From an uncultured Candidatus Peribacteria bacterium (GTDB taxonomy: Bacteria; Patescibacteriota; Gracilibacteria; BD1-5; JAGOOR01): DNA of 46,932 nt. The notes beneath the pieces were generated by a model. The model was not told the DNA's origin, searched no databases, and saw only the letters and a list, made by a program, of their open reading frames with translations. The stretch lies in the NCBI GenBank assembly GCA_964603225.1, contig CAZRUI010000001.1, positions 1-46,932 of the forward strand, given 5' to 3'. This document shows positions 7,819 to 46,838 of this stretch, piece by piece. The first letter of the stretch is position 1, and each line of letters starts with the position of its first letter. The position numbers and the translations under genes are program-made.

Positions 7819-7936
7819 CCAAGGGTGAAAAAGGCGACAAGGGCGGAAGTGAAAAAAGGAAAGGCAAACCGTTGTCACCCTTTCGACCCCTTTCACCCTT
7901 TTTACCTTTTTAGCCCTTTCGATCCTTTTTACCTTC
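7819..7936. repeat. Imperfect inverted repeat built from AAAGGG/CCCTTT-type 9-10 nt tandem units
   Basis: Left arm 7821-7865 (aagggtgaaaaaggcgacaagggcgg..), right arm 7877-7935 (accctttcgacccctttcaccctttttacc..). Fills the spacer between the stop at 7939 and the gmd -10 box. Confidence 0.7.
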
Positions 7937-12770: not shown

Positions 12771-14408
12771 CTAGCGCACGTCCGGCTCCCGCACACGCCA
12801 CAGGCTCCATCCGTCCCCCCGTTCTTCCGGCATGAGGAGCAATGAATCCGGTGACCAGTCCGGTTCCCGCCGCTCGTTCCATACCACGTGGGTCACGCCG
12901 TATGCGGCCATGTACGATGCCAGCCGCCGCTTCACTATGCGGCAGATGCGCAGCGCGTCGGCCAGGTGCGCGTCATAGAGCTCCTGCGTCTGGTGCCCGC
13001 GCGCCACGCGCAGGGCCTCTTCCGCCAGCACCACCAGCCTCTGGGGCTCCGGCGGCCGGGGCGAGAGGGCGCGGCTCAGGCAGTAGCGCTCGTAGTACTC
13101 CCGGTCCGGGATAAGCAGGATGTTACTGTACTCCGTGAACACCACGTCCTGGTCCGTGTACGACGCCAGGATGTCCGCCGTCTTCTGGTCCGTGAGAATG
13201 GTGCGCCTCTGCCCGCGGTTGAGCAGGTCTGTCAAGGACGCCAGGTGCTGGTACGCCATGCTGGCCGCGTCCGGCGGAGAGAAGGCGTACCCCAGCGTGG
13301 CGTAGTCGCGGAAAGCGAAGAAGATGAGGATCCCCGCGCAGGCAGACGCCACCCGGCCAGCCCACTGCCGCCAGCGCAGCTGCTGCGCGATGGCCAGGAG
13401 CGCGAGCGCACCGAGCATGACCGCATACTGGTAGTAGTGCGACGAGAACGACATGATGCGCCCGTGCACGAGCTGCTGGCTGAACACCAACGCCAGGCCG
13501 ATGAGGCCGCTCAGGAGCACTGCATACCACTCGCGATCTTCACGCCTACGCCACAACCACGCGGCTGCACCGGCAAGGACGAACAGGAGGACACTGCGGG
13601 GCAGGGATTCGAGATCGCGGCTGTACGCCAACCCCACGCGAGCGGAAGATTCCCTAAAGAACGGACTGTGCGCGGCCACCACCATGCGCAACAGCGACGG
13701 CGAGGCGAAGACAAGCGCTGTCGCTCCCAGGGCCGCGAACGTCTTCAGGCGACGAACGCGGACAGGAGACTGTGGCAACACCATGGCGAACAGGAGCAGC
13801 ACGCCGGCGGTGGCCCACAGGAACGTCCACGCCCAGAAGTACACCGACACGACGTACCCCAAGACCGCGCCGGTCAGGACCGCACGCGACGGAGTGGAAG
13901 ATTCCCACCATAGGACAAGCAGCCAGAATCCGAGCATCACGAGCGGCTGGCTGAATCCCGGGTGGAAGAACCGCTGCGGGAACCCCAGTGCGGCGTAGAA
14001 CAGCAATGCTCCCAGCAGAGAGAGGCCGCGGCTCACGCCAAAACGACGGGCAATGACCGCAAAGAGCGGTAGCATGAGCGGCGCGATGATGACGGTGAGC
14101 ACCTGCGTAAGATGCGGCGCGGCGATTCCGGTCCATCCAAAGAGCCACCCCAGCACCTGCTCGATGCCTGCCATCTGCATGCCCGGCGGTGCACTGGGCG
14201 TGCTCCAGATGCCGTTCGTGGCATCCGCCAGCGGGTGACGCAGCGCCTCCTGCAACCGTAGGTAGTACATCGCCTCCTCGCTGCCCCGGTAGGGGACCAA
14301 CCCCCGGTACAGGGGATGGAGGAGCGCGCGCAGCGGACGCACGCTCTGCGTGAGCACGCCCAAGAGCCAGGAGAGGAGGAGTACTGTGCGGAACGACCGG
14401 TCTGTCAT
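12771..14408 (-). CDS. Large polytopic membrane protein with soluble C-terminal domain (GT-C-like, putative)
   Basis: ORF track 12771..14504. Start set at ATG 14408 (MTDRSFRTVLLLSWLL); alternative GTG 14432. About 12 hydrophobic spans, then a roughly 190-aa soluble tail. Function not recognisable beyond architecture. Confidence 0.6.
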   Translation of the reverse strand: MTDRSFRTVLLLSWLLGVLTQSVRPLRALLHPLYRGLVPYRGSEEAMYYLRLQEALRHPLADATNGIWSTPSAPPGMQMAGIEQVLGWLFGWTGIAAPHLTQVLTVIIAPLMLPLFAVIARRFGVSRGLSLLGALLFYAALGFPQRFFHPGFSQPLVMLGFWLLVLWWESSTPSRAVLTGAVLGYVVSVYFWAWTFLWATAGVLLLFAMVLPQSPVRVRRLKTFAALGATALVFASPSLLRMVVAAHSPFFRESSARVGLAYSRDLESLPRSVLLFVLAGAAAWLWRRREDREWYAVLLSGLIGLALVFSQQLVHGRIMSFSSHYYQYAVMLGALALLAIAQQLRWRQWAGRVASACAGILIFFAFRDYATLGYAFSPPDAASMAYQHLASLTDLLNRGQRRTILTDQKTADILASYTDQDVVFTEYSNILLIPDREYYERYCLSRALSPRPPEPQRLVVLAEEALRVARGHQTQELYDAHLADALRICRIVKRRLASYMAAYGVTHVVWNERREPDWSPDSLLLMPEERGDGWSLWRVREPDVR

Positions 14409-37729: not shown

Positions 37730-38755
37730 TCAAATTCCAGGGCGAACGTACGTATCCATCTTCATCATCAGCTCCTCCAGACTATGGCGCTCCGCGACCA
37801 CCCGGTACATCTCCTCCTCGCTGAGCGGGAGGCGGTCAAAGTACCGCATGACGAACTCGTGCATGGCTTCCGGCGTGTCATGCGCCGGTGCCGCCGGCAG
37901 TCCGATCGCCTGGGCGTTCCCATGGGTGGTGACCGGATAGCAACCACAGGTCAGGGCTTCCAGCATGGTCTTGTCGATCGTCTCCGAAGCCATGTTCAGG
38001 ATCAGCCAGTGCCGCGCGTAGATTGCGGGTAGCTCGCGTGCCGCGACCGAGCCGCGGAACGTCACGCGGTCGGATAGTTCCAGTCGTTCCACGAGCATCC
38101 TAAGTTCCTTGGCATAATCCGGCTCCGGCTCATTGCCGTAGATGTCCAGCGTGAAGTGTTTGGGAAGAAGACGCATCGCATGCAACGAGAGCTCCACGCG
38201 CTTGCTGCGCGCCAGTCTGTGGACCATGAGCAGCCTATGCGGTTCAGTGCAGCGGTTCTGTCGCTTGGGCCAGTACGTCAGATCGATCCCATGGCCCGTC
38301 ACCACCTTCTTGGGATTCCCCTCATAGCGGGGCAGGCTCTGCGGTGTAGCACAGAAGAGGCGCTTGCCGTACCAGCCGAGCAACCGCAGCCCCAGCTGCA
38401 GCTGGTAGTGCGTGTACCACAGGTACACGGGCGTTCGGCGCAGGATCCACACCGGCATCCCAAAGATCCCCCACACAGGGGTCATGTGGATGAACACCCG
38501 GTCGTACTGGAGCTGCGCGACCAGACCCAGGAACTGCAGGACCTGCCCGAGCTTGCCAACCCCCCGCTCCTTCCCGAGCGAGTGCACCTCCGCCGTGAAT
38601 GGCTCGCCGTGACCGAGCAGGCGGCCCACCTCCTCCACCCGCGCCTCCAGGCAGATCACCTTCACCTCATACCCCAGCTGCTGGAACTGCCGGATCCAGA
38701 GCGCGCCAAAGGCATCCTGCCCGTGGAGCTTCTGCGTGATGAAGAGGAGGGTCAC
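37730..38755 (-). CDS. Glycosyltransferase family 1 (GT4-type)
   Basis: ORF track 37730..38815. Start moved to GTG 38755 (VTLLFITQKL), with TATCCT 6 nt upstream; the 20-codon extension lies in the hairpin repeat. Motif MASETIDKTMLEALTCGCYPV. Confidence 0.8.
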   Translation of the reverse strand: MTLLFITQKLHGQDAFGALWIRQFQQLGYEVKVICLEARVEEVGRLLGHGEPFTAEVHSLGKERGVGKLGQVLQFLGLVAQLQYDRVFIHMTPVWGIFGMPVWILRRTPVYLWYTHYQLQLGLRLLGWYGKRLFCATPQSLPRYEGNPKKVVTGHGIDLTYWPKRQNRCTEPHRLLMVHRLARSKRVELSLHAMRLLPKHFTLDIYGNEPEPDYAKELRMLVERLELSDRVTFRGSVAARELPAIYARHWLILNMASETIDKTMLEALTCGCYPVTTHGNAQAIGLPAAPAHDTPEAMHEFVMRYFDRLPLSEEEMYRVVAERHSLEELMMKMDTYVRPGI

Positions 38756-38761
38756 GGACGA

Positions 38762-38767
38762 AGGATA
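38762..38767 (-). promoter_or_regulatory. -10 box TATCCT, 6 nt upstream of GTG 38755
   Basis: Reverse complement of aggata. Abuts the hairpin arm. Confidence 0.5.
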
Positions 38768-38855
38768 CAGAGGACTCAGAGGATCCAGAAGACTCAGAAG
38801 AACGCTGTGCCACATCCGCTGAGTCCTCTGCGTCTTCTGAGTCCCCTGAGTCTTA
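38768..38855. repeat. Hairpin with arms of tandem 9-mers (CAGAGGACT type)
   Basis: Left arm cagaggact cagaggatc cagaagact cagaag. Right arm ctgagtcct ctgcgtctt ctgagtccc ctgagtctt. About 24/30 complementary by eye; 18-nt loop. Confidence 0.8.
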
Positions 38856-39965
38856 TCGGGCGAAGCCCTTCAGAAACTCCGCATACTGCCTGATCAGTGT
38901 CTTCCGCTCAAACCGCTCCAGGATCTTCCGCGCCGCCTGGCCCAGGCGCTCCTGGACGGCAGTATCCGTAAGCAACCGGCTGATCTGCCGCGACAGGTCA
39001 CGGACCGAGCCGTCTGTGAACACGCCATTCTCCCTGTCACGGATCACCTCCGGCATCGCGCCCACGCGCGTGGCAATGACGGGCAGACCTAAGGCCATCG
39101 CCTCCAGCGCGCTGCGCGGACCGCCCTCGCTCCTGGAGTTCATCACAAAGATCCGCCCGCTCTGCATCGCATGTACCAGCTGCCGCTGATCAGGCAACCA
39201 GCCGGCGAACGCCACGCGGTCGGCCATCCCTCTCGTTTGTACGCGCCTCTGCAGGCGCGTCTTGAGCGGCCCGTCGCCGATCAGGAGCAGGCGCACGCCG
39301 GGGAGCGCGCCCACCGCGTCGATCAGCTCCAAAAGCCCCTTATTGGCCACCAGCCGCGCCGCAGTGACCACGTCGTACGCCTTTGCGACGGCTGCGTCCG
39401 GCTTCAGGGCACCTGCATCCAGGTAGAACGAAGGAACGAGGCGGAGCTTCTCCCCCGGTACGCCCCAGGCAACCAGCAGGTCCATCACCGACCGGCTCAC
39501 CACCCGCACGCCGCAGGCCCGCCGCGCCGCCCAGGGCAGGTAGAGGCGGGACATCAGGCGACCAGCGCGCTCCGCGAGCGACGCCGCCGTGGGCGCACCC
39601 ACCACGTGGTGCACTTCCAGGACGTACGGGATACCGGACACGCGGTGGAGCTTCCTTGCCCCCAGTCCATTGAAGAACGGCGGGTACTCATGGACGGTCA
39701 TCACGTCATGATGATGGTCGGCGATCAGCTGCGCCCCCTTCTCCGTAATCCATCTCTTCTGCCACGCGAGCGGCCATGGGGAGGGGTGGAACCACACATT
39801 CTCAAATTCCGACGTCTGACCACTAACCACTGGCCACTGGCCACTCCTTGGACAGATCACATCCACCCGCTCCCAATGCGTATGGAACTCTTCCAGGGTG
39901 TGCCAGAACGCCCCCCGCTTCCCCGCCAGGATGGAACGGTCGCCGGAGATCATCAAAAGCTTCAC
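38853..39965 (-). CDS. Glycosyltransferase family 1 (GT4-type)
   Basis: ORF track 38853..40025. Start moved to GTG 39965 (VKLLMISGD), with CATAAT 6 nt upstream. Motif NSRSEGGPRSALEAMALGLPVIAT. Contains the in-frame heptamer array at 39816..39845 (SGQWPVVSGQ). Confidence 0.8.
   Translation of the reverse strand: MKLLMISGDRSILAGKRGAFWHTLEEFHTHWERVDVICPRSGQWPVVSGQTSEFENVWFHPSPWPLAWQKRWITEKGAQLIADHHHDVMTVHEYPPFFNGLGARKLHRVSGIPYVLEVHHVVGAPTAASLAERAGRLMSRLYLPWAARRACGVRVVSRSVMDLLVAWGVPGEKLRLVPSFYLDAGALKPDAAVAKAYDVVTAARLVANKGLLELIDAVGALPGVRLLLIGDGPLKTRLQRRVQTRGMADRVAFAGWLPDQRQLVHAMQSGRIFVMNSRSEGGPRSALEAMALGLPVIATRVGAMPEVIRDRENGVFTDGSVRDLSRQISRLLTDTAVQERLGQAARKILERFERKTLIRQYAEFLKGFAR
39816..39845. 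repeat. CCACT-heptamer array embedded in frame in a GT4 CDS
   Basis: ctgaccact aaccact ggccact ggccact. Translated on the minus strand as SGQWPVVSGQ. Confidence 0.75.
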
Positions 39966-39970
39966 AGCTG

Positions 39971-40046
39971 AATTATGAATGAGGAATGATGAATCATGAA
40001 GGCCAGCCGCCGCATACTTCCTCATTCACGATTCCTGATTCTTAGG
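39971..40046. repeat. Hairpin with arms of tandem heptamers (GAATGAG/GAATCAT type)
   Basis: Left arm aattatg aatgagg aatgatg aatcatg aagg. Right arm cttcctcattcacgattcctgattcttagg. The right arm encodes the last codons of 40026..41237; the left arm contains the -10 of 38853..39965. Confidence 0.8.
39972..39977 (-). promoter_or_regulatory. -10 box CATAAT, 6 nt upstream of GTG 39965
   Basis: Reverse complement of attatg. Lies inside the hairpin arm. Confidence 0.5.
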
Positions 40047-41237
40047 AGCGGCAACTCCTTCAGCTAGCCCCTCAAACAGCTCCATCCACTCATCCGCCAC
40101 CTGCTCCCAGCTGCGCGCGGGGAGAGGCGCGGACGCAGCCTCCGCTGCTTCCGCATAGGATTGTTCCAGCTCCAGCACCGCCCGGGCAATGTCCTCCGCC
40201 TCCCGCAGGGGCGCAAGGACCATGCCCGCCGTGAGCTCCGGAGAGAGGCCCGTCTCCTCCGTGAGGAGGACCGGCATGCCCGCCGCGCGCGCCTCCAAGG
40301 CCGCATTGGGGCTGATCTCCGTGAGGGACGGAATGACCAGCGCGTCATGGTCCCGGAATACCGCCGCCTTCTCCGTAGGCCCCCTGGATGCCTGGAAGCT
40401 CACGCGATCGATGATCATGAGCGCTTGCGCCTCCTGCTTGAGCTGTTTCAAGAGCGGCCCCTCTCCCACAACCGACAGCCGCACGTGCGGCAGCCGCGCC
40501 ACGGCCCGGAGCAGGGCGGAGAGGTTCTTGAACCCCACCAGCCGCCCGAACCACAGGAGCCGCACCGGCCGCTCTTTGAGCTCTGCTGCTCGCGCGGCGT
40601 ACGGCACGTCCGCCGGCAAATTGAGGGAGGGGAACGCGTTCTGGATCACCAGATGCCGCCGGATATCCGGGTACGCCAAGCGGTAGAGGTGCTCCTGGAA
40701 CGCCGTGGTGAAGGCGATGGCATGGAACCTGGGGAGGAGCGGCTGGAGGAACACGCGGTTGAGCCGCCGCGTGAGGCGGTAGGCGAGCGCGTCCTGCACC
40801 GTGCCGCTCGCGGAAACCGGCCGCGACCGGTACCACTCCCGGAGCGTCCGCTTGCCACCCATCCCCGTGTACCGCTCCCAGAAGTAATCCCCGCCCACGC
40901 GCAGCACCCGGTACGGCTTCTTCAGTTTGGCCATTCTGAGCGGCATGCCCACGGAGACGGAGGAGAACGCCAGCACCACGTCCGCGTCCGCCGCGTACCG
41001 GCGCAATACCCCCGCGTACCGCCGCCAACGCACCACCGGCCCGCCCGCGCGGGACACCCGCACCACCGGCATGCCGCCGCTCTCATCCCGCGCCACTCCG
41101 CCCTTCACCTCCTTGGCGAACGTGATGACCGTCACATCCTGTCCCCGCCGCAGGAGCTCCTTGCCCAGCGCATCCACGTACGTAGCCGGACCGCCGATCT
41201 CCGGAAGAGCGATGCCGGTAGCGAGGATAATCTTCAT
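40026..41237 (-). CDS. Glycosyltransferase family 1 (GT4-type)
   Basis: 403 aa, starts MKIILATGIALPEIGGPATY. Motif PSLTEISPNAALEARAAGMPVL. ATGA overlap with the upstream four-helix-bundle gene. The last 7 codons are encoded by the hairpin arm. Confidence 0.85.
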   Translation of the reverse strand: MKIILATGIALPEIGGPATYVDALGKELLRRGQDVTVITFAKEVKGGVARDESGGMPVVRVSRAGGPVVRWRRYAGVLRRYAADADVVLAFSSVSVGMPLRMAKLKKPYRVLRVGGDYFWERYTGMGGKRTLREWYRSRPVSASGTVQDALAYRLTRRLNRVFLQPLLPRFHAIAFTTAFQEHLYRLAYPDIRRHLVIQNAFPSLNLPADVPYAARAAELKERPVRLLWFGRLVGFKNLSALLRAVARLPHVRLSVVGEGPLLKQLKQEAQALMIIDRVSFQASRGPTEKAAVFRDHDALVIPSLTEISPNAALEARAAGMPVLLTEETGLSPELTAGMVLAPLREAEDIARAVLELEQSYAEAAEAASAPLPARSWEQVADEWMELFEGLAEGVAAPKNQES

Positions 41238-41623
41238 GAGATGTGGGACTTGAGTGATGAGACTTGAGTGAGAAGCTTGCTGTGAAAACTGTGCAGCATA
41301 CGGCTCAACCCATCAATGGATTCCAGGATGCACGGAGCGCGATCTTCAGTTATTCGACCAAGTTCCCTAGCGATGATCACCTGAGTTTCCAGTTCGGCCA
41401 GAGACCCACGGGCAATAAGGAGAAAATTTGCGAATTCTTTAACCGTACTACGCTGGCTACCTTCAGCGATATTCGATGGCACAGAAACAGCAGCTCGACG
41501 CATCTGGGAAGTTAAGCCATAGAGCTCTGTCTTGGGAAACTCTTCTGTGCACTCATAGATCATCTTCACAATCTCAATGCTTTTCTGCCAAATCTTTAGC
41601 TTTTTATAAGACATGCCAATCAT
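41234..41623 (-). CDS. Four-helix-bundle protein (23S rRNA intervening-sequence protein / Avd-like family)
   Basis: 129 aa. Motifs YKKLKIWQKS, LTSQMRRAAVSVPSNIAEG, FANFLLIARGSLAELETQ. TACTAT sits 6 nt upstream of ATG 41623. About 46% GC by hand count over 41281..41640, against GC-rich neighbours. Confidence 0.85.
   Translation of the reverse strand: MIGMSYKKLKIWQKSIEIVKMIYECTEEFPKTELYGLTSQMRRAAVSVPSNIAEGSQRSTVKEFANFLLIARGSLAELETQVIIARELGRITEDRAPCILESIDGLSRMLHSFHSKLLTQVSSLKSHIS
41238..41275. repeat. Left terminal inverted repeat (ACTTGAG/TGATGAG heptamers) flanking the four-helix-bundle ORF
   Basis: Segment 41247-41275 (gacttgagtgatgagacttgagtgagaag) matches the reverse complement of 41637-41667 at 22/29 positions (hand alignment). 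Confidence 0.75.
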
Positions 41624-41629
41624 ATCGCC

Positions 41630-41635
41630 ATAGTA
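41630..41635 (-). promoter_or_regulatory. -10 box TACTAT, 6 nt upstream of ATG 41623 (four-helix-bundle gene)
   Basis: Reverse complement of atagta. Confidence 0.5.
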
Positions 41636-41636
41636 C

Positions 41637-41667
41637 TACTCATGTCTCAAGTCTCATATCTCAAATC
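41637..41667. repeat. Right terminal inverted repeat flanking the four-helix-bundle ORF
   Basis: Sequence tactcat gtctcaa gtctcat atctcaa atc. Overlaps the rfbB stop codon (41661-41663). Confidence 0.75.
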
Positions 41668-42599
41668 TTCTTCGTATACCAGTCAACCGTCCGCTCGATC
41701 CCCTCCTCAAACGCCACCCTGGGTTCCCAGCCGAGCGAGCGGATGAGGCTTGAATCCACGCGGTAGGCCCAGTCATGACCTGGACGATCCGGGACGAATT
41801 CGATCAGGCTCTCCGGTTTCCCCAGGATCCGGAGTACCGTCCTGGCGACTTCAATATTCTCTCTCTCCTGGTCGGGACCGATCAGGTACACCCAGCCGTC
41901 TTCGCCTTTCTCCCGCACCAGCTCCACCGCGTCGGTGTGGTCCGTCACGTACAGCCAATCCCGCTTCTGTTTGCCCTGCCCGTAGAGGGGAATATTCCCG
42001 TTTGCGAGCGCGTTCCGGATGATCACCGGGATGAGCTTGGTCTTGTCCTGGTGCGGACCGTAGTTGTTGGTACAGCGGGTGATGCGGATTTTGAGGTCAT
42101 ACGTGCGGCGCGCGGCCAGGAGCATCAGATCGCCCGCCGCCTTGGTGGCCGCATAGGGATTGGACGGCCGCAGGGGTGACTCCAGGTTGAACGCCGGCTC
42201 GTCATCCTGCACGTCGCCGTAGACCTCGTCGGTGGAGACGTGGACGAGCAGGATTGCCGGGTGGGCTTTGAGGATCTCCATGAGGCTCTGCACGCCCACG
42301 ATGTTCGCATGGAGGAACGGCAGCGCGTTCTCAATCGACCGGTCCACGTGCGTCTCCGCGGCAAAATTCACGATCTGCTCAATGCCGTACCGCGTGACCA
42401 GCTGCTCCAGGAGCTCCACATCCGCAATGTCCCCCTGGATGAACCGGATCCGGTTAATGACGGAGTCCAGAAGACTCTTGTCCGCCGCGTAGTTCAGGCT
42501 GTCCAAAACGATGACCGTGTCGTCCGGATACCGGTCGATATGCCGCAGGACGTAGTGGGAACCGATGAAGCCCGCTCCTCCGGTTACTAAGATGGTCAT
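41661..42599 (-). CDS. rfbB: dTDP-glucose 4,6-dehydratase
   Basis: ORF track 41661..43124. Start moved to ATG 42599 (MTILVTGGAGFIGSH), with TATCCT 6 nt upstream. Motifs YAATKAAGD (YxxxK) and CTNNYGPHQ. Confidence 0.92.
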   Translation of the reverse strand: MTILVTGGAGFIGSHYVLRHIDRYPDDTVIVLDSLNYAADKSLLDSVINRIRFIQGDIADVELLEQLVTRYGIEQIVNFAAETHVDRSIENALPFLHANIVGVQSLMEILKAHPAILLVHVSTDEVYGDVQDDEPAFNLESPLRPSNPYAATKAAGDLMLLAARRTYDLKIRITRCTNNYGPHQDKTKLIPVIIRNALANGNIPLYGQGKQKRDWLYVTDHTDAVELVREKGEDGWVYLIGPDQERENIEVARTVLRILGKPESLIEFVPDRPGHDWAYRVDSSLIRSLGWEPRVAFEEGIERTVDWYTKKI

Positions 42600-42605
42600 A
42601 TGCTC

Positions 42606-42611
42606 AGGATA
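42606..42611 (-). promoter_or_regulatory. -10 box TATCCT, 6 nt upstream of ATG 42599 (rfbB)
   Basis: Reverse complement of aggata. Confidence 0.55.
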
Positions 42612-42617
42612 CAACGG

Positions 42618-42705
42618 CGATTGAATGTGGAATATCGAATGTCGAATTTCGAGTAAGAATGGTTGGCTGATCGATATTCCATATTCGACATTCGGTATTC
42701 GAACC
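42618..42705. repeat. Hairpin with arms of tandem heptamers (TCGAATG/GGAATAT type)
   Basis: Left arm cgattgaatgtggaatatcgaatgtcgaatttcga. Right arm gatcgatattccatattcgacattcggtattcgaacc. About 23/33 complementary. Lies between the divergent rfbB and rfbA -10 boxes. Confidence 0.8.
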
Positions 42706-42729
42706 ATGTTTTCCCACTTCAAATTCCCG

Positions 42730-42735
42730 TACAAT
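42730..42735 (+). promoter_or_regulatory. -10 box TACAAT, 8 nt upstream of ATG 42744 (rfbA)
   Basis: Read directly from the sequence. Confidence 0.55.
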
Positions 42736-42743
42736 ACCTCCCT

Positions 42744-43493
42744 ATGAAGGGCGTCCTCATCTGCGGCGGTACCGGCTCGCGCCTGCGGCCGCTCACGGAG
42801 ATCACCAATAAGAGCCTCCTGCCGGTCTACGACCGGCCACTCATCGATTACCCGCTGCAGGTGCTCCTCCGCGCGGGCATTGCGGACATCATCGTCATTA
42901 CGGGGCCGGAACACATGGACCAGATCGCCGCGTTCCTGGGTTCCGGAGAGAAGTTCGGCTGCACGTTCGCCTTCCGGGTGCAGGAGAAGCCGGGCGGTAT
43001 TGCGCAAGCACTGGGGCTGGCGGAGGAGTTTGTGGCCGGGGACATCCTCTGCGCGATCCTGGGGGACAACGTCTACTTGGATGACCTCTCTCCGGCCATC
43101 AAAGCGTTCGAACACGGGGCGCATGTGTTCCTAAAGGAAGTGCCGGATCCGGAGCGCTTTGGCGTTGCCGAGGTCCGGTCGTCACTGACCACCGACCACT
43201 CGCCACTGACCACTGTGGTATCGATCGAGGAAAAACCCTCCGTCCCCAGATCGAACCTGGCCGTCACTGGCTGCTACCTCTACGATGCCCGGTGTTTTGA
43301 CTTCATCCGCACGCAGGAACCCTCCCCCCGGGGCGAGCTGGAGATCACGGACGTGAGCCGCCGCTACCTGGAACTGGGCGAACTCCAGGCGTCCGTGCTG
43401 ACGGACGAATGGATCGATGCCGGAACGTTCGAGAGCCTCTACCGCGCGGCGACCGTGGTGCGGGAGCGGCGCCTCTCCGCTGCCGAGTCATGA
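42744..43493 (+). CDS. rfbA: Glucose-1-phosphate thymidylyltransferase (short-form sugar nucleotidyltransferase)
   Basis: ORF track 42663..43493. Start moved to ATG 42744 (MKGVLICGGTGSRLRPLT), with TACAAT 8 nt upstream. Motifs NKSLLPVYDRPLIDYPL and SIEEKP. In-frame heptamer array at 43181..43215 (SSLTTDHSPLTT). Confidence 0.88.
   Translation: MKGVLICGGTGSRLRPLTEITNKSLLPVYDRPLIDYPLQVLLRAGIADIIVITGPEHMDQIAAFLGSGEKFGCTFAFRVQEKPGGIAQALGLAEEFVAGDILCAILGDNVYLDDLSPAIKAFEHGAHVFLKEVPDPERFGVAEVRSSLTTDHSPLTTVVSIEEKPSVPRSNLAVTGCYLYDARCFDFIRTQEPSPRGELEITDVSRRYLELGELQASVLTDEWIDAGTFESLYRAATVVRERRLSAAES
43181..43215. repeat. CCACT-heptamer array embedded in frame in rfbA
   Basis: gtcact gaccacc gaccact cgccact gaccact g. 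Translated on the plus strand as SSLTTDHSPLTT, between the conserved FGVAE and SIEEKP. Confidence 0.75.
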
Positions 43494-43981
43494 CAACAGT
43501 GCTGCACGCCGGGTTGGAGGAACTTGTCGCGCGAGCCGAAGCCGAAGGCCGCACGCTGGTGGTAGGCGCGGGGATCCAGCACGCAGGCCGCCTGCTCCTG
43601 GTCCGCCGCGCAACTACGGAAAATTTTCTGGCTGAGTACTGGGAAGTCCCCGGCGGCAAGGTAGACCAAGACGAATCGATCTTAGATGCGCTCGTACGGG
43701 AAGTCCGCGAGGAGACAGCCCTGGAGATCAGAGACATTCGTGACTGCGTCGGCATGTTCGATTACGACCTTCCGGAAGGCCTCTTCTGCCAGTTCACGTT
43801 CCTGGTGGACGTGACGCACCCTCACCTCACCCTCAATCCCGCGGAGCACGACGCGCGTCGGTGGATCCATCCGAGCGAGCGGCCGACGCTCGATACCCTG
43901 CGCCTTACGCCCCAGATGCGCGCTATGCTAGCAGTCCTGTTCCACCGGATGGAGGGTCAGGCCACCAGCATCTCCGCGTAG
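43490..43981 (+). CDS. NUDIX hydrolase
   Basis: ORF track 43409..43981. ATG 43490 forms an ATGA overlap with the rfbA stop. Nudix box GGKVDQDESILDALVREVREETAL. Confidence 0.85.
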   Translation: MTTVLHAGLEELVARAEAEGRTLVVGAGIQHAGRLLLVRRATTENFLAEYWEVPGGKVDQDESILDALVREVREETALEIRDIRDCVGMFDYDLPEGLFCQFTFLVDVTHPHLTLNPAEHDARRWIHPSERPTLDTLRLTPQMRAMLAVLFHRMEGQATSISA

Positions 43982-45114
43982 ACCTGGCCGTACCGGGCCG
44001 CTATGGCGGACCAGTCGTAGTGCTGAGCATGTTGGCGACCGGCCTCAGCGGCCTGTTCGCGGAGTTTCGGGTTCTGGAGATACACTTGAATCGCCTCCGC
44101 CGCTGCGGCCGGATCATCTGGCGCAACTAGCGTCCCCGCCGCTTTGGGCACGATCTCCGGGATACCCTGGACAGTTGTAGCCACCACCGCGCAGCCCGCT
44201 GCCTGCGCTTCCAGGAAGACGTTCCCAAACGCCTCCGATCGCGACAGCCCGCAGAAGACCTCCGCCTCTGCGAACTCCCGCAGGAGATCTAGACCCGTGA
44301 GGTACCCCCGGAACGTCACGTGCCGATCGACCCCCAGTTCCCGGGCCAGCTGCTGGAGCTGTTTCCTGAGCGAACCATCGCCCACGATGTGCAGATGTGG
44401 AGCGATGAGCGATGAGCGGGTAGCGGTGAGCTTGGCTGCTCCTTGTTTCCGCCCGCCGCTCACAGCTCTCCGTTCGCGCTGACCACTGACCGCTGACCAC
44501 TGACCGCTCACTATCGCGAACGTTCGCAGAAGAACATCCACCCCCTTCATCGGCTCCAGACGGCCAACGAACAGCACCCGCTCCGGCACCTTGTCCCATT
44601 GACCGCACACCTCACGGGTGGCGTCCAGCGGGATACCGTTGGGGATGAGAGTCACGTCCGTACGGCCCAATGACGCGGCCCGGTCGATCAAGACCTGGCT
44701 AATAGCGGTGAGGCGGTGCGGGGCGCGGTGGATGGGACCGAGCAGGAAGGAAGTGTTCGTGCTCTGGAGCGTGAGGAGCCGCCGGGCATCCGGCACCAGC
44801 ATGCGCGCACACAGGAGCGCCACTCCGGCGTAGGATTCCAGCACGGCATGGAGGAGCGCGGGCCGCAGCCGCCTAGCGGTCCAGGCACTGAGGAGCGGGA
44901 AGAGCCACTTGTCGATCGGGAGGCCCAGGCCCACCCGGACAACGCTCACGCCCAGGAGGTCATCCTGCCGGGGCAAGCGGAGCCGCATGCGCGCCGTGAT
45001 GATCACCACGTCATAAGAGGCCGCAAGCCGCACCGCCACCTCCTCCGCGCACGCCTCCGCCCCGCTCCGCAGGGGGGAGAGGAACGCGGAGAGGACAACG
45101 ACACGCTGTTTCAC
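43957..45114 (-). CDS. Glycosyltransferase family 1 (GT4-type) carrying a translated hairpin-repeat insertion
   Basis: ORF track 43957..45168. GTG 45114 (VKQRVVVLSAF) preferred; ATG 45168 possible. Motif SRSEAFGNVFLEAQAAGCAVVAT. About 36 extra residues (SGQWSAVSGQ...TRSSLIA) lie just before the conserved HIVGDG. Confidence 0.8.
   Translation of the reverse strand: MKQRVVVLSAFLSPLRSGAEACAEEVAVRLAASYDVVIITARMRLRLPRQDDLLGVSVVRVGLGLPIDKWLFPLLSAWTARRLRPALLHAVLESYAGVALLCARMLVPDARRLLTLQSTNTSFLLGPIHRAPHRLTAISQVLIDRAASLGRTDVTLIPNGIPLDATREVCGQWDKVPERVLFVGRLEPMKGVDVLLRTFAIVSGQWSAVSGQRERRAVSGGRKQGAAKLTATRSSLIAPHLHIVGDGSLRKQLQQLARELGVDRHVTFRGYLTGLDLLREFAEAEVFCGLSRSEAFGNVFLEAQAAGCAVVATTVQGIPEIVPKAAGTLVAPDDPAAAAEAIQVYLQNPKLREQAAEAGRQHAQHYDWSAIAARYGQVYAEMLVA
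44400..44511. repeat. Complete two-armed GGTCAGT-family hairpin element embedded in frame in a GT4 CDS
   Basis: Arm 44400-44431 (gagcgatgagcgatgagcgggtagcggtgagc) matches the reverse complement of 44478-44509 at 23/32 positions (hand alignment). The right arm contains a perfect 14-nt tandem duplication (gctgaccactgacc x2). Confidence 0.75.
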
Positions 45115-45119
45115 AGTAC

Positions 45120-45198
45120 GGAATGGAAAATTGAAAATGGACAACGCACAATGACCGTCATTGTACATTGTAAATTGCCCATTCTACATTTCCCATTC
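45120..45198. repeat. Hairpin with arms of tandem heptamers (GAATGGA/AAATTGA type) plus a central perfect palindrome
   Basis: Left arm ggaatggaaaattgaaaatggacaa. Centre acaatga-ccg-tcattgt (45148-45164). Right arm ttgcccattctacatttcccattc. Confidence 0.8.
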
Positions 45199-46315
45199 AC
45201 GCGCTCTGCGACATCAATGCAAACAAATCTTGGTACTGCTTCCCCACCGCCTCCCAGCTGAAGTGCTCCTGGATCCGCTGCCGCGCCGCCTGCCCCATGG
45301 CCCGCCGCTTGGCGGGGTCCTCAAGCAACCGGCGAACGTGCGCCGCCAGGGCTTCTCGGTCCCCGGGCGGGAAGAGGAGCCCGGAGACGCCGTTCTGGAG
45401 GAGGAACCGGTTCCCGCCCACGTCGGTTGCTATGCACGCGCAGCCGCTCGCCATGGCTTCCATGAGGGCGTTACTGAGCCCCTCGCTGTGGCTGGGAAGA
45501 ACAAAGATGTCCGTCCCGGCCAGTACCGCCGGAATGTCGTCCCGCAAGCCGGTGAACGCCACGTCCCGCTCGTACCGCCGCACGAGCGGGTGGCCGTCCC
45601 GGTACCAACCAACTACTTGCAGCTTGAGGCGGGAATGGCTCTTTTTGAGCGGCACAACCGCTTCAAGGAAGTCATCGACGCCCTTGATGGACTCCAGCCG
45701 ACCGACGTATGTGACAGTGATCGCAGCGGAATCTGACCACTGACCACGGACTACCGACCACTGTGCCGGATCGATCCCGGTAGGAATCACTTGGCTCTTC
45801 CCAGCAAGGCCAAGCCGCCTCAGGAGCCGCTCCGGCTGCGGATGGAAGAACACGATTCTGGCAGCGCACAGCAGGATCAACCACCCCAGCGTCCACGCAT
45901 AGATGGCCGCGGCAATTTTGGGCAACCTGCCGCGCGGCCACCACGTCATGCCCACCAGGGCGTCCGTGAGCAGAATCACCCGCCGCCCCCGGAGCGCCAG
46001 GGAGAGGACGGACAGGGACGTCCAGAACAGAATCTTATTTACCACCACGATATCCGGCTGCTCCGACCGGATGAGCGCCCGCACGCGGCGGGAGAAGCCC
46101 CAGGCGATCCCATAGTTCCACGGATCGGGCAGGAAGAAGTCCCGGAAACGGTGAATGGCCAGCGTAGCCGAGACACGCTCTCCCCCCGTCTCCGCCCCCA
46201 TGCAGGCCATGATGACCCGGAAGCCCAGCCGCTGCCACAGTTCCGCCAGTTTCACCGAGCTCACCATCCAGCGGTGCTGCTCCTGCCAGTAGGGGGAGAT
46301 AAGGAGGATCTTCAC
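45197..46315 (-). CDS. Glycosyltransferase family 1 (GT4-type)
   Basis: 372 aa, GTG start (MKILLISPYW). Motif PSHSEGLSNALMEAMASGCACIAT. In-frame heptamer array at 45733..45763 (QWSVVRGQWS). Confidence 0.85.
   Translation of the reverse strand: MKILLISPYWQEQHRWMVSSVKLAELWQRLGFRVIMACMGAETGGERVSATLAIHRFRDFFLPDPWNYGIAWGFSRRVRALIRSEQPDIVVVNKILFWTSLSVLSLALRGRRVILLTDALVGMTWWPRGRLPKIAAAIYAWTLGWLILLCAARIVFFHPQPERLLRRLGLAGKSQVIPTGIDPAQWSVVRGQWSDSAAITVTYVGRLESIKGVDDFLEAVVPLKKSHSRLKLQVVGWYRDGHPLVRRYERDVAFTGLRDDIPAVLAGTDIFVLPSHSEGLSNALMEAMASGCACIATDVGGNRFLLQNGVSGLLFPPGDREALAAHVRRLLEDPAKRRAMGQAARQRIQEHFSWEAVGKQYQDLFALMSQSA
45733..45763. repeat. CCACT-heptamer array embedded in frame in a GT4 CDS
   Basis: ctgaccact gaccacg gactacc gaccact g. 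Translated on the minus strand as QWSVVRGQWS. Confidence 0.7.
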
Positions 46316-46320
46316 GGAGC

Positions 46321-46396
46321 GGTCAGAAGCGAGTGGTCAGTGATCAGTATGAGGAAAAAATCCACACCTGGCCACTGACCCCTGACCACTGATCAC
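46321..46396. repeat. Hairpin with arms of tandem heptamers (GGTCAGT / CCACTGACC family)
   Basis: Left arm ggtcaga agcgagt ggtcagt gatcagt. Right arm ctggccact gacccct gaccact gatcac. About 19/27 complementary. The loop contains a CATACT -10-like box for the minus strand. Confidence 0.8.
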
Positions 46397-46755
46397 TCTT
46401 CTGTGGAACTCTCATCCTGCGCCAAGCCGGCCTCTCTCAGCGCAATTTCCCTGACCAACTTGGCCTGCCGCTCTTCCAGCTCCTCCAACCGGATGACCAG
46501 GTAGAACACCATGAAGAAGAGGATGCCCAGGAACGTCACGACCACCGCGTTTTCCCGGTCGGCAACCCCCGTCAGGGCAGAGAGCGTGGTGAGGAGGTCC
46601 GGCAGGAGCGCAATGAGCGCCACCAATCCCCAGAAGAACGTCCAGAGCAGCGCTTCCCACACCGTCTTCTTGCCCCGCCGCACCAGCCCCCACGCGTACG
46701 CGACCGCGACCAGGGACAGGAGCGGCGCGATGATCTGGTAGGGGGTGAGAGACAT
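46393..46755 (-). CDS. DUF2304-family small membrane protein
   Basis: 120 aa with three or four TM spans, then a charged coiled tail (RLEELEERQAKLVREIA). This type usually sits next to a GT2 gene. Confidence 0.7.
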   Translation of the reverse strand: MSLTPYQIIAPLLSLVAVAYAWGLVRRGKKTVWEALLWTFFWGLVALIALLPDLLTTLSALTGVADRENAVVVTFLGILFFMVFYLVIRLEELEERQAKLVREIALREAGLAQDESSTEE

Positions 46756-46758
46756 GAC

Positions 46759-46838
46759 GCGAATGTTGAATAGCGAATGGCGAATGTGGAATACCGATGG
46801 GGTTCGACATTCGACATTCTATAGTCGATATTCGATCC
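46759..46838. repeat. Hairpin with arms of tandem heptamers (GCGAATG type; same family as 42618..42705)
   Basis: Left arm gcgaatg ttgaata gcgaatg gcgaatg tggaata ccg. Right arm ggttcgacattcgacattctatagtcgatattcgatcc. Shares cgaatgtcgaa and gaatatcga strings with 42618..42705. Confidence 0.8.

Follow-up and report, generated by a model that had tools for sequence, protein, structure and literature searches.

The stretch of DNA analysed here, 46,932 nt from an uncultured Candidatus Peribacteria bacterium (contig CAZRUI010000001.1; the whole stretch is referred to as the window), carries five short tandem arrays of the heptamer CTGACCA within 6.6 kb. Four of them lie in frame inside protein genes, namely those of three family 4 glycosyltransferases (GT4) and of a glucose-1-phosphate thymidylyltransferase (RmlA), and the fifth forms one arm of an intergenic hairpin. 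The explanation that we favour, with a probability of roughly 55 %, is that these arrays are part of a Peribacteria-wide class of repeats (period 7, some period 8, about 30 nt in length) that resembles the short tandemly repeated repetitive (STRR) sequences of cyanobacteria and that is made and homogenised in place and then filtered for reading frame, stop codons and loop position. This array class builds hairpins at gene junctions as inverted pairs, and it occurs as single arms in genes.

Window coordinates are used throughout, and the array sites are those returned by Tandem Repeats Finder (TRF) at period 7. All five CTGACCA sites were called on the plus strand, with 3.9-4.7 copies and match levels of 76-90 %. 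The first array (39816-39845, 4.3 copies of CTGACCA) is located inside the minus-strand gene GT4_2 and is read there as the peptide SGQWPVVSGQ, while the second (43183-43215, 4.7 copies of CACTGAC/CTGACCA) is found inside the plus-strand gene rmlA, where it codes for residues 145-157 (RSSLTTDHSPLTT). The third, within the minus-strand gene GT4_8, was called by TRF at 44479-44505 (3.9 copies of CTGACCR) and belongs to a feature of about 4-5 units (44479-44513) with a 14-nt register spanning 44477-44508 (TRF); it codes for IVSGQWSAVSGQ, between helix C-alpha-1 and the LHIVGDG strand. The fourth array (45733-45763, 4.4 copies of CTGACCA) lies inside the minus-strand gene GT4_9 (peptide QWSVVRGQWS), and the fifth (46368-46397, 4.3 copies of CTGACCA) constitutes one arm of the intergenic hairpin at 46317-46398. 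A search with (CTGACCA)3 that allowed up to three mismatches returned 11 matches, all of them at these five sites, as compared to 0.00 expected from 100 shuffles, and the 9-mer CCACTGACC occurs five times versus 0.38 expected. An earlier sequence-only reading of this DNA had placed the arrays at these positions and had called their density high; the positions were borne out, and the unit does recur far above chance. All four host frames are open, too, and encode the peptides it had quoted (SGQWPVVSGQ, SGQWSAVSGQ, QWSVVRGQWS, and SLTTDHSPLTT). Read along the plus strand, a perfect CTGACCA array presents a TGA every 21 nt; in the rmlA array the third unit is CTCGCCA, which changes CAC TGA to CAC TCG and thus eliminates the in-frame TGA.

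Pfam agrees with the previous assignment of the hosts as three GT4 enzymes and one RmlA-type nucleotidyltransferase. GT4_2 (38853-40025, minus strand; PF00534, PF13692) was aligned with L004, L006, and L007, the syntenic relatives being L004/L005/L006 (71 % nucleotide identity) and L007. The rmlA gene (42744-43493, plus strand; PF00483; PDB 3hl3, E = 3.7e-71) encodes the short form of the thymidylyltransferase, and GT4_8 (43957-45168, minus strand) as well as GT4_9 (45197-46315, minus strand) were assessed by Pfam, orthologue, and PDB alignments. The hosts had been described as unrelated, which applies to the array positions, as these are non-homologous, but not to the genes themselves, three of which are GT4 paralogues. 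In RmlA, the comparison with 3hl3 opens a gap of 9 residues between FGVAxV and VxSIEEKP, and most orthologues are likewise shorter; the suggested insertion into a variable loop was thereby confirmed, with a size of 9 rather than 7-8 residues. Across the 120 closest orthologues, the loop span is short in 68 (19-21 residues), intermediate in 10, and expanded in 42 (at least 26 residues). The Pfam match of GT4_8 covers 28 residues more of the protein than of the profile, both the Pfam and the PDB alignments break at the array segment, and the distance from MKGVD to HIVGDG amounts to 59 residues in the window, as compared to typically 27-30 in orthologues. The alignments thus indicate that the RmlA and GT4_8 arrays are net insertions. 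The array of GT4_9 occupies the interdomain linker ahead of VTYVGRLE, the length of which is normal when set against PDB 6kih and orthologous proteins (2 residues more than in L004 and 5 fewer than in L007). That of GT4_2 occupies a loop of about 8 to 30 residues between DVICPR and NVWFHPSPW, the length and sequence of which are hypervariable across all orthologues, with no net gain in the window. These latter two arrays are accordingly best described, as far as alignments tell, as array-shaped sequence within linkers that were already hypervariable, with no length gained. The expectation that orthologues lack the segment therefore holds for most orthologues of RmlA and GT4_8 but not for GT4_2 and GT4_9. 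The proposed surface-loop location was supported by AlphaFold2 models: in RmlA (mean predicted local distance difference test, pLDDT, of 91.3), residues 145-157 make up the tip of a beta-hairpin (E140-144/E156-163), with pLDDT values below 50 at residues 148-152, and in GT4_8 (mean pLDDT of 92.5), residues 220-230 extend a surface helix (H210-237) that is followed by a low-confidence loop. Both array peptides are hence predicted to reside on the protein surface.

The window is by no means the only place where such arrays are found. A survey set was compiled from 80 Peribacteria RmlA loci of GTDB genomes together with the syntenic contigs (83 loci, 1.33 Mb; given as L numbers). Among the tandem periods in this set, 7 is the commonest with 298 arrays (periods 8 and 9 have 132 and 189), which is 12-fold above the 25 period-7 arrays of a composition-matched shuffle, and a control of 50 kb from the E. 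coli rfb/wca region contained no period-7 array with at least 2.8 copies. The arrays are about 30 nt long (median 30) in every class, in genes and spacers alike, with copy numbers that peak at 4.0-4.8 (period 7) or 3.2-4.0 (period 8) and fall sharply beyond five units. Their units are strikingly diverse, as 170 distinct canonical units were counted among the 298 period-7 arrays. CTGACCA itself is not private to the window genome, since (CTGACCA)3 is present in at least 120 unrelated metagenome contigs with a G+C content of 33-73 %. With regard to location, 70 % of the arrays fall within the 20 % of sequence that has no conserved coding, and about 30 % (91 of 308 period-7/8 arrays) are inside conserved genes, defined by at least 10 spanning homologue alignments. 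These 91 in-gene arrays comprise 33 % net insertions and 37 % that sit in hypervariable linkers without length gain, and the sense-strand consensus unit is free of stops in 68 of 79 cases. The same host loops are used recurrently (the RmlA hairpin, two GT4 stretches at residues of about 45-70 and 190-240, and the C-terminal portion of an aminotransferase) and carry unrelated units in different species; for example, 12 of 15 distinct loci with expanded RmlA loops have period-7 or period-8 DNA there, again with unrelated units. An inverted partner within 120 nt was detected for 49 % of intergenic arrays, 10 % of in-gene arrays, and 0 % of random 30-mers. Outside the window, same-unit arrays displayed no orientation bias (40 direct versus 36 inverted).

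Comparison with the syntenic relatives suggests that the window copies of CTGACCA are old and evolve in place rather than being recent arrivals. At the GT4_8 site, L007 has GTGGTTAGTGGTCAGCGGGCAGCGGTGAGC (VVSGQRAAVS), and the window corresponds to the L007 state plus WSAVSGQ, that is, IVSGQ[WSAVSGQ]RERRAVS, a difference of exactly 21 nt or three units. The array is common to the window, L007/P0141, and P0122 (SGQ...SGQ in P0122), and its segment is absent in L004, which we read as a loss. This array, shared with relatives and three units away from that of L007, reflects inheritance and in-place expansion rather than a new arrival. L004 has also kept the hairpin arm at 46368 (at 13615), where the hairpin itself has decayed (z = 0.16); a covariation test of the hairpin was dropped, as L004 is the only alignable sequence. 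The RmlA loop, in turn, spans 28 residues in the window, L004, and L007, with three different sequences.

The survey furnished further insights into array turnover. In the RmlA loop, L033 carries AATGGAAAATG (NGKC) and L040 carries (AATGGAA)4.6, which is exactly 21 nt longer, so that in-place expansion by 21 nt from an existing seed was observed in two cases (L033/L040 in RmlA and L007/window in GT4_8). Other orthologous arrays keep a copy number of about four and are set apart by one or more substitutions common to all units, for example, CATTTTG x4 in L070 (7948) versus CATTCTG x4 in L071 (7956); unit changes of this concerted type were also noted for TTTCCAC in L044 (5844) versus TTTCGTA in L080 (12326) and for L058 (3877) versus L062 (10755). 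This constitutes concerted evolution within arrays of 30 nt. A total of 133 orthologous comparisons gave 94 arrays that were diverged or replaced, 23 that were absent, and 16 that were conserved. General conservation of the arrays as a sign of function was tested on the same basis and fails on average, with an identity of 0.60 for the arrays versus 0.75 for their flanks.

That the unit also forms an intergenic hairpin, as claimed earlier, was confirmed by folding. The hairpin in the spacer between DUF2304 and GT4_9 (46317-46398, minus strand) has the CTGACCA array as its 3' arm (46368-46398 on the plus strand) and a degenerate complement as its 5' arm (46317-46347), and its RNA fold reaches -42.4 kcal/mol (z = -3.9). 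The in-gene copies are single arms that do not fold significantly by themselves (z = -1.0 to -1.35, with -1.35 for the GT4_2 array), and the idea that they are halves of in-frame hairpins was rejected by folding for GT4_2, rmlA, and GT4_9. In GT4_8, a second short array (44397-44428, plus strand, 2.7 units of GAGCGAT by TRF) lies within the same insert. Folding of 44385-44525 pairs it weakly with the CTGACCR array (z = -2.3, with a centroid structure that disagrees), and it is possibly the degenerate partner arm of an in-frame hairpin. In relatives, complete hairpins do occur in frame at the array loops of the window, for instance at the GT4_2 site of L004 (7385-7465), and likewise in the RmlA loop of L009/L010/L036 and at GT4 sites of L033/L040; they include GC-rich examples (CCCAGCCCCTCC...GGAGGGAGCTGGG) as well as examples with two heptamer arms.

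Other gene junctions of the window harbour hairpins with different units. One with GAATATC/TCGATAT heptamer arms between the divergent rmlB and rmlA (42623-42702, 85 % complementary, z = -2.9) is of the same element class as the CTGACCA hairpin with another unit. Further examples are the AATGGAA/CATTGTA hairpin in the GT4_9/GT4_8 spacer (45122-45190, -37.5 kcal/mol, z = -6.4), which is partially conserved in L004, the TGAATGA hairpin in the GT4_3/GT4_2 spacer (39969-40034, z = -1.9), which is missing from L004 (46-nt gap), and the GCGAATG/TTCGATA hairpin upstream of DUF2304 (46759-46836, z = -2.2). Between GT4_2 and the upstream GT4 gene, the arms have a period of 9 (CAGAGGACT; 38762-38852, -56 kcal/mol, z = -6.1), and a second period-9 hairpin with the arms ACCCTTTTT/TCACCCTTTCGACCCTTT was found at 7821-7933; the periodic-arm design is therefore not restricted to heptamers. 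A scan of the whole window at Rfam gathering thresholds gave zero families, and BLAST of the hairpin against a phage collection gave no match. Hairpin arms were also seen to enter called open reading frames (ORFs; 40013-40034, 45157-45190, 46368-46398, and 42623-42702), with spurious N-terminal extensions of GT4_2, GT4_8, and a 487-aa ORF over rmlB, as well as array-coded C-terminal tails of GT4_3 and of a four-helix-bundle protein. GT4_2 probably starts at GTG 39965 and GT4_8 at GTG 45114.

The gene for this four-helix-bundle protein (PF05635, 23S_rRNA_IVP; Pfam E = 6.7e-39; ORF 41234-41623 within an element at 41234-41668, minus strand) lies between two inverted heptamer arrays (41237-41261 and 41640-41663), which match at 20 of 24 bases and span 427 nt. 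In L004 and L007, the orthologous spacer lacks this gene and holds empty hairpins instead. A hidden Markov model scan of the 83 loci revealed three more PF05635 genes, all of them enclosed in the same manner (L028 9023-9476, 24/24; L077 3558-4004, 23/24; L036 6149-6595, 21/24); L209-L217 and L204 307-800 are the other loci at which such genes were noted. The arms of five further Peribacteria PF05635 genes match at 21, 18, 21, 20, and 21 of 24 positions, those of genes from Planctomycetota, Nitrospirota, Omnitrophota, and Victivallales at 22, 19, 21, and 19 of 24, and those of one metagenome copy at 19 of 24. Taken together, 13 of 14 sampled PF05635 genes from five phyla have arms with at least 19 of 24 matches, a level that 0.2 % of positions drawn at random from the same array-rich loci attain. 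The spacing from array to array is about 430-490 nt, the 3' array often codes for the C-terminal tail of the protein, and, since the units differ at every locus, the arms do not qualify as conserved terminal repeats. Among solved structures, the one closest to the window protein is that of Xanthomonas XCC0516 (PDB 2gsc, five chains), the start codon of which is overlapped by a four-unit GGGAATC array (Rehm et al. 2015, PMC4692102, supplementary table). PF05635 has been termed a functionally uncharacterised domain (PMC11270868). We found no direct literature on PF05635 genes flanked by repeats. In 1993, Ralph and McClelland reportedly described intervening sequences (IVSs) of 23S rRNA that carry an S23p (PF05635) ORF. 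The Peribacteria cassettes are similar in that a four-helix-bundle ORF is placed in the loop of a long inverted-repeat stem and in that ORF-less versions are far commoner; they differ in that they reside between protein genes in operons and have stems made of locus-specific heptamer arrays. The enclosure of PF05635 genes ties the arrays to IVS-like cassettes and does not thereby explain the in-gene arrays.

On the favoured explanation, the arrays would arise and become homogenised in place via replication slippage or template switching, and selection would retain in-gene arrays that have a length divisible by three, contain no stops, and lie in protein surface loops. That a single unit is found five times in 6.6 kb would result from short-range templated copying (gene conversion or template switching) combined with shared descent, rather than from transposition, and the array peptides would be translated and tolerated as loop filler without being functional protein motifs.

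Several observations weigh against this explanation. First, the length peak at about 30 nt conflicts with the geometric tail of copy numbers that simple slippage would produce, and neither copy-number nor presence/absence polymorphism was detected in 3+3 independent assemblies (three of the window organism and three of a relative). Second, all 14 period-7 arrays of the window (at least 2.7 copies) lie at 37.5-46.9 kb and none in the first 37.5 kb, although the region of 25-37.7 kb has the same G+C content and glycosylation genes as well (GT9, PfkB, methyltransferases, epimerase, GT4, GT2); simple slippage leaves this confinement to the last 9.4 kb unexplained. The five CTGACCA arrays, moreover, share a single orientation on the plus strand, so that the two orientations mentioned in the sequence-only reading exist relative to the host genes but not on the DNA. 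Two arrays share their unit 3.4 times as often when they belong to one locus as when they belong to different loci, also when the window is left out, and the length excess of array-bearing loops over their homologues has no clean peak at multiples of 7 residues. The TTTCCAC family, the arrays of which sit in two different GT4 loops (L042 5585, L080 12793, L056 7061, L044 2317/5844), is 94-97 % identical between species, as compared to 72-76 % for the flanks, which hints at constraint on some arrays. Finally, the association with PF05635 hints at an element-like or factor-dependent biology that the favoured explanation does not account for.

Since the length of about 30 nt, the lack of polymorphism, the 9.4-kb confinement, and the well-conserved arrays are not explained by simple slippage, a functional role of the arrays as cis-elements is conceivable, although we regard it as unlikely. 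Four to five heptads could bind a multimeric factor, the four-helix-bundle protein with its five chains in 2gsc being a candidate, or arrays could pair in trans and couple rmlA and GT4 expression, for example, as RNase III substrates, and the in-gene copies would then be kept for function. This would be in line with the preference for four units and about 30 nt that is common to Xanthomonas, Nostoc, and Geobacter, with arrays that are conserved above their flanks, with the enclosure of 13 of 14 PF05635 genes, and with the concentration of all window arrays in a single gene cluster. In addition, since rmlA is transcribed oppositely to the GT4 genes, its mRNA array (43176-43222) is complementary to those of GT4_2 (39809-39852), GT4_8 (44472-44520), and GT4_9 (45726-45770), with predicted duplexes of about -54 to -55 kcal/mol (z = -4.7 to -6.6). 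These energies are, however, a trivial consequence of the sequence that the arrays share. Moreover, arrays evolve on average faster than their flanks, most orthologous sites have another unit or none, 170 units are too many for one factor, and most arrays are far from any four-helix-bundle gene (4 genes in 1.32 Mb versus 308 arrays).

A more speculative and rather doubtful proposal is that heptamer arrays and PF05635 proteins (the 23S-rRNA-IVS/Avd-like family) form one cross-phylum system. The ORF-bearing hairpins would be its "loaded" form, with the abundant empty hairpins and the in-gene arms as derivatives or by-products. The task of the multimeric protein would be to bind or protect stems of about four to five heptads or to aid their propagation, and the RmlA and GT4 loops would be collateral landing or expansion sites. 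If true, this would explain both the bacterial excess of four-unit heptamer repeats and the role of the IVS protein, and the collateral sites in RmlA and GT4 loops would generate loop diversity.

We consider it improbable that a mobile miniature element, comparable to Rickettsia palindromic elements (RPEs) or miniature inverted-repeat transposable elements, moved in trans as a ready-made CTGACCA unit of some 30 nt or as a whole hairpin and survived in frame in loops. The occurrence of one unit at five sites in 6.6 kb, with copy numbers of about 4.3 and a CT(C/G) end at each site, the uniform length in all classes, and the higher sharing of units within loci would all fit such an element. The same is true of the complete in-frame hairpins of relatives (RmlA loop in L009, L010, and L036, GT4_2 site in L004) and of the four-helix-bundle cassette, which the window has and the corresponding spacer of L004 and L007 lacks. 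However, the in-gene copies of the window have neither a consensus beyond the heptamer nor conserved flanks or target duplications, they do not fold, and 90 % of in-gene arrays in the survey have no partner arm. The diversity of 170 units among 298 arrays, the two cases of expansion from a seed, and the lack of presence/absence polymorphism argue against mobility as well, and no transposase was noticed in the ORFs examined in the partly annotated window. The notion of a proliferating element, which the sequence-only reading had put forward, was not supported, given that the GT4_8 array was inherited and grew by 21 nt, that the 46368 arm is kept in L004 (relatives at 71 % nucleotide identity), and that the same loops elsewhere hold unrelated units. 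RPEs, as reported by Ogata and colleagues in 2000, are said to measure 100-150 bp, to have a family consensus, and to be inserted whole and in frame. The likeness to them lies in repeated DNA that is in frame within unrelated genes at tolerated surface positions; it does not extend to palindromy, to a consensus or flanks, or to the insertion history, as the in-gene copies of Peribacteria are single tandem arrays of 27-33 nt without a palindrome, at least one of which has grown in place. A conserved palindrome family of the repetitive extragenic palindrome type (REP/REPIN) was not seen either, no search for RAYT genes having gone beyond the sampled loci.

Ordinary divergence of ancestral variable loops, with a coincidental heptamer periodicity and a coincidentally shared unit, would suit the GT4_2 and GT4_9 sites, which are hypervariable in every orthologue and have gained no length in the window, yet it is highly improbable because the shuffle statistics (11 matches versus 0, and a 12-fold excess of period 7) contradict coincidence and perfect or near-perfect arrays occur in many species. 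An assembly or sequencing artefact, conceivable given the metagenome source and the proneness of short tandem repeats to mis-assembly, can practically be dismissed, as all reading frames are open and the arrays are 100 % identical in three independent assemblies (contigs of the runs SRR8893624, SRR8893623, and DRR736439, 2.7-4.7 kb compared), with three contigs of a relative of the window organism likewise identical over them.

The arrays lie in a polysaccharide gene cluster (37.7-46.9 kb) of a window that has a G+C content of 64 % and the closest named homologues of which are from Candidatus Peribacteria/Peregrinibacteria, a lineage of the candidate phyla radiation (CPR). Apart from the genes discussed above, the cluster includes an upstream GT4 gene (37730-38815, minus strand), GT4_3 (40026-41237, minus strand), an RmlB-like dehydratase (41661-42602, minus strand), a NUDIX gene (43490-43981, plus strand), and DUF2304 (46393-46755, minus strand). 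The convergent 3' ends of NUDIX and GT4_8 overlap by 25 nt (43957-43981), and this is the sole junction of the cluster without a hairpin. Beyond the window end, arrays run on for about 4 kb in L001.

Tandem heptamers are not new as such. Mazel and colleagues reportedly described, in 1990, STRR heptanucleotides of heterocystous cyanobacteria that form several unit families per genome and are dispersed and mostly intergenic. The Peribacteria arrays resemble them as tandem heptamers with several unit families, but the cyanobacterial repeats were described as intergenic markers, and we know of no report of STRR sequences that systematically occupy protein loops in frame. Four-unit heptamer repeats have been on record from cyanobacteria, Xanthomonas, and Geobacter ever since 1990; to our knowledge, neither a mechanism nor a function has been established for them. 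A more recent paper mentions the STRR heptanucleotides of Calothrix and cites a general excess of heptameric simple sequence repeats in bacteria (Mrazek et al. 2007) together with the idea of slippage related to the polymerase footprint (PMC4692102). According to this work, the GGGAATC/GGGGATT heptamers of Xanthomonas and Nostoc are enriched in non-coding DNA, form 70-75 convergent (inverted) pairs per genome that may give stem-loops, overlap ORFs in 7-11 % of cases, and vary in length and sequence between close species while the repeat type is kept (Rehm et al. 2015, PMC4692102). They are G-rich, were read as G-quadruplex formers, and comprise one unit per genome, whereas the Peribacteria units are diverse and mostly not quadruplex-capable, with 30 % of the arrays in conserved genes. 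Geobacter metallireducens has a four-unit GGACCGG family of 49 copies with a proposed regulatory role (Aklujkar et al. 2009, PMC2700814). It is the same type of four-unit heptanucleotide repeat, but it represents one family in a delta-proteobacterium, as opposed to many units with few copies each per region in a CPR lineage, and in-frame loops, turnover, and hairpin pairing, all examined here for Peribacteria, were not analysed in that paper. Such repeats are not mentioned in the Peribacteria genome paper (PMC4736985), and our literature search on in-frame heptamer elements returned nothing direct. Four-unit heptamer repeats are hence a known kind, and what is undescribed as far as we found is their occurrence in the CPR, their density in conserved genes, the recurrent loop sites, and their dynamics.

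Owing to their dense arrays and many related genomes, Peribacteria expose how such repeats behave, including the reuse of loops, steps of +21 nt, concerted unit change, and the filter for frame and stops. The position of PF05635 genes between inverted arrays offers a testable handle on two orphan puzzles together. For annotation, the findings are a warning that SGQWSVV, TRNQKPE, and other peptides encoded by arrays do not represent domains and that hairpin arms are often misread as N- or C-terminal extensions of ORFs. Such arrays are also a tangible means by which enzymes in small genomes acquire surface loops that vary in length and sequence.

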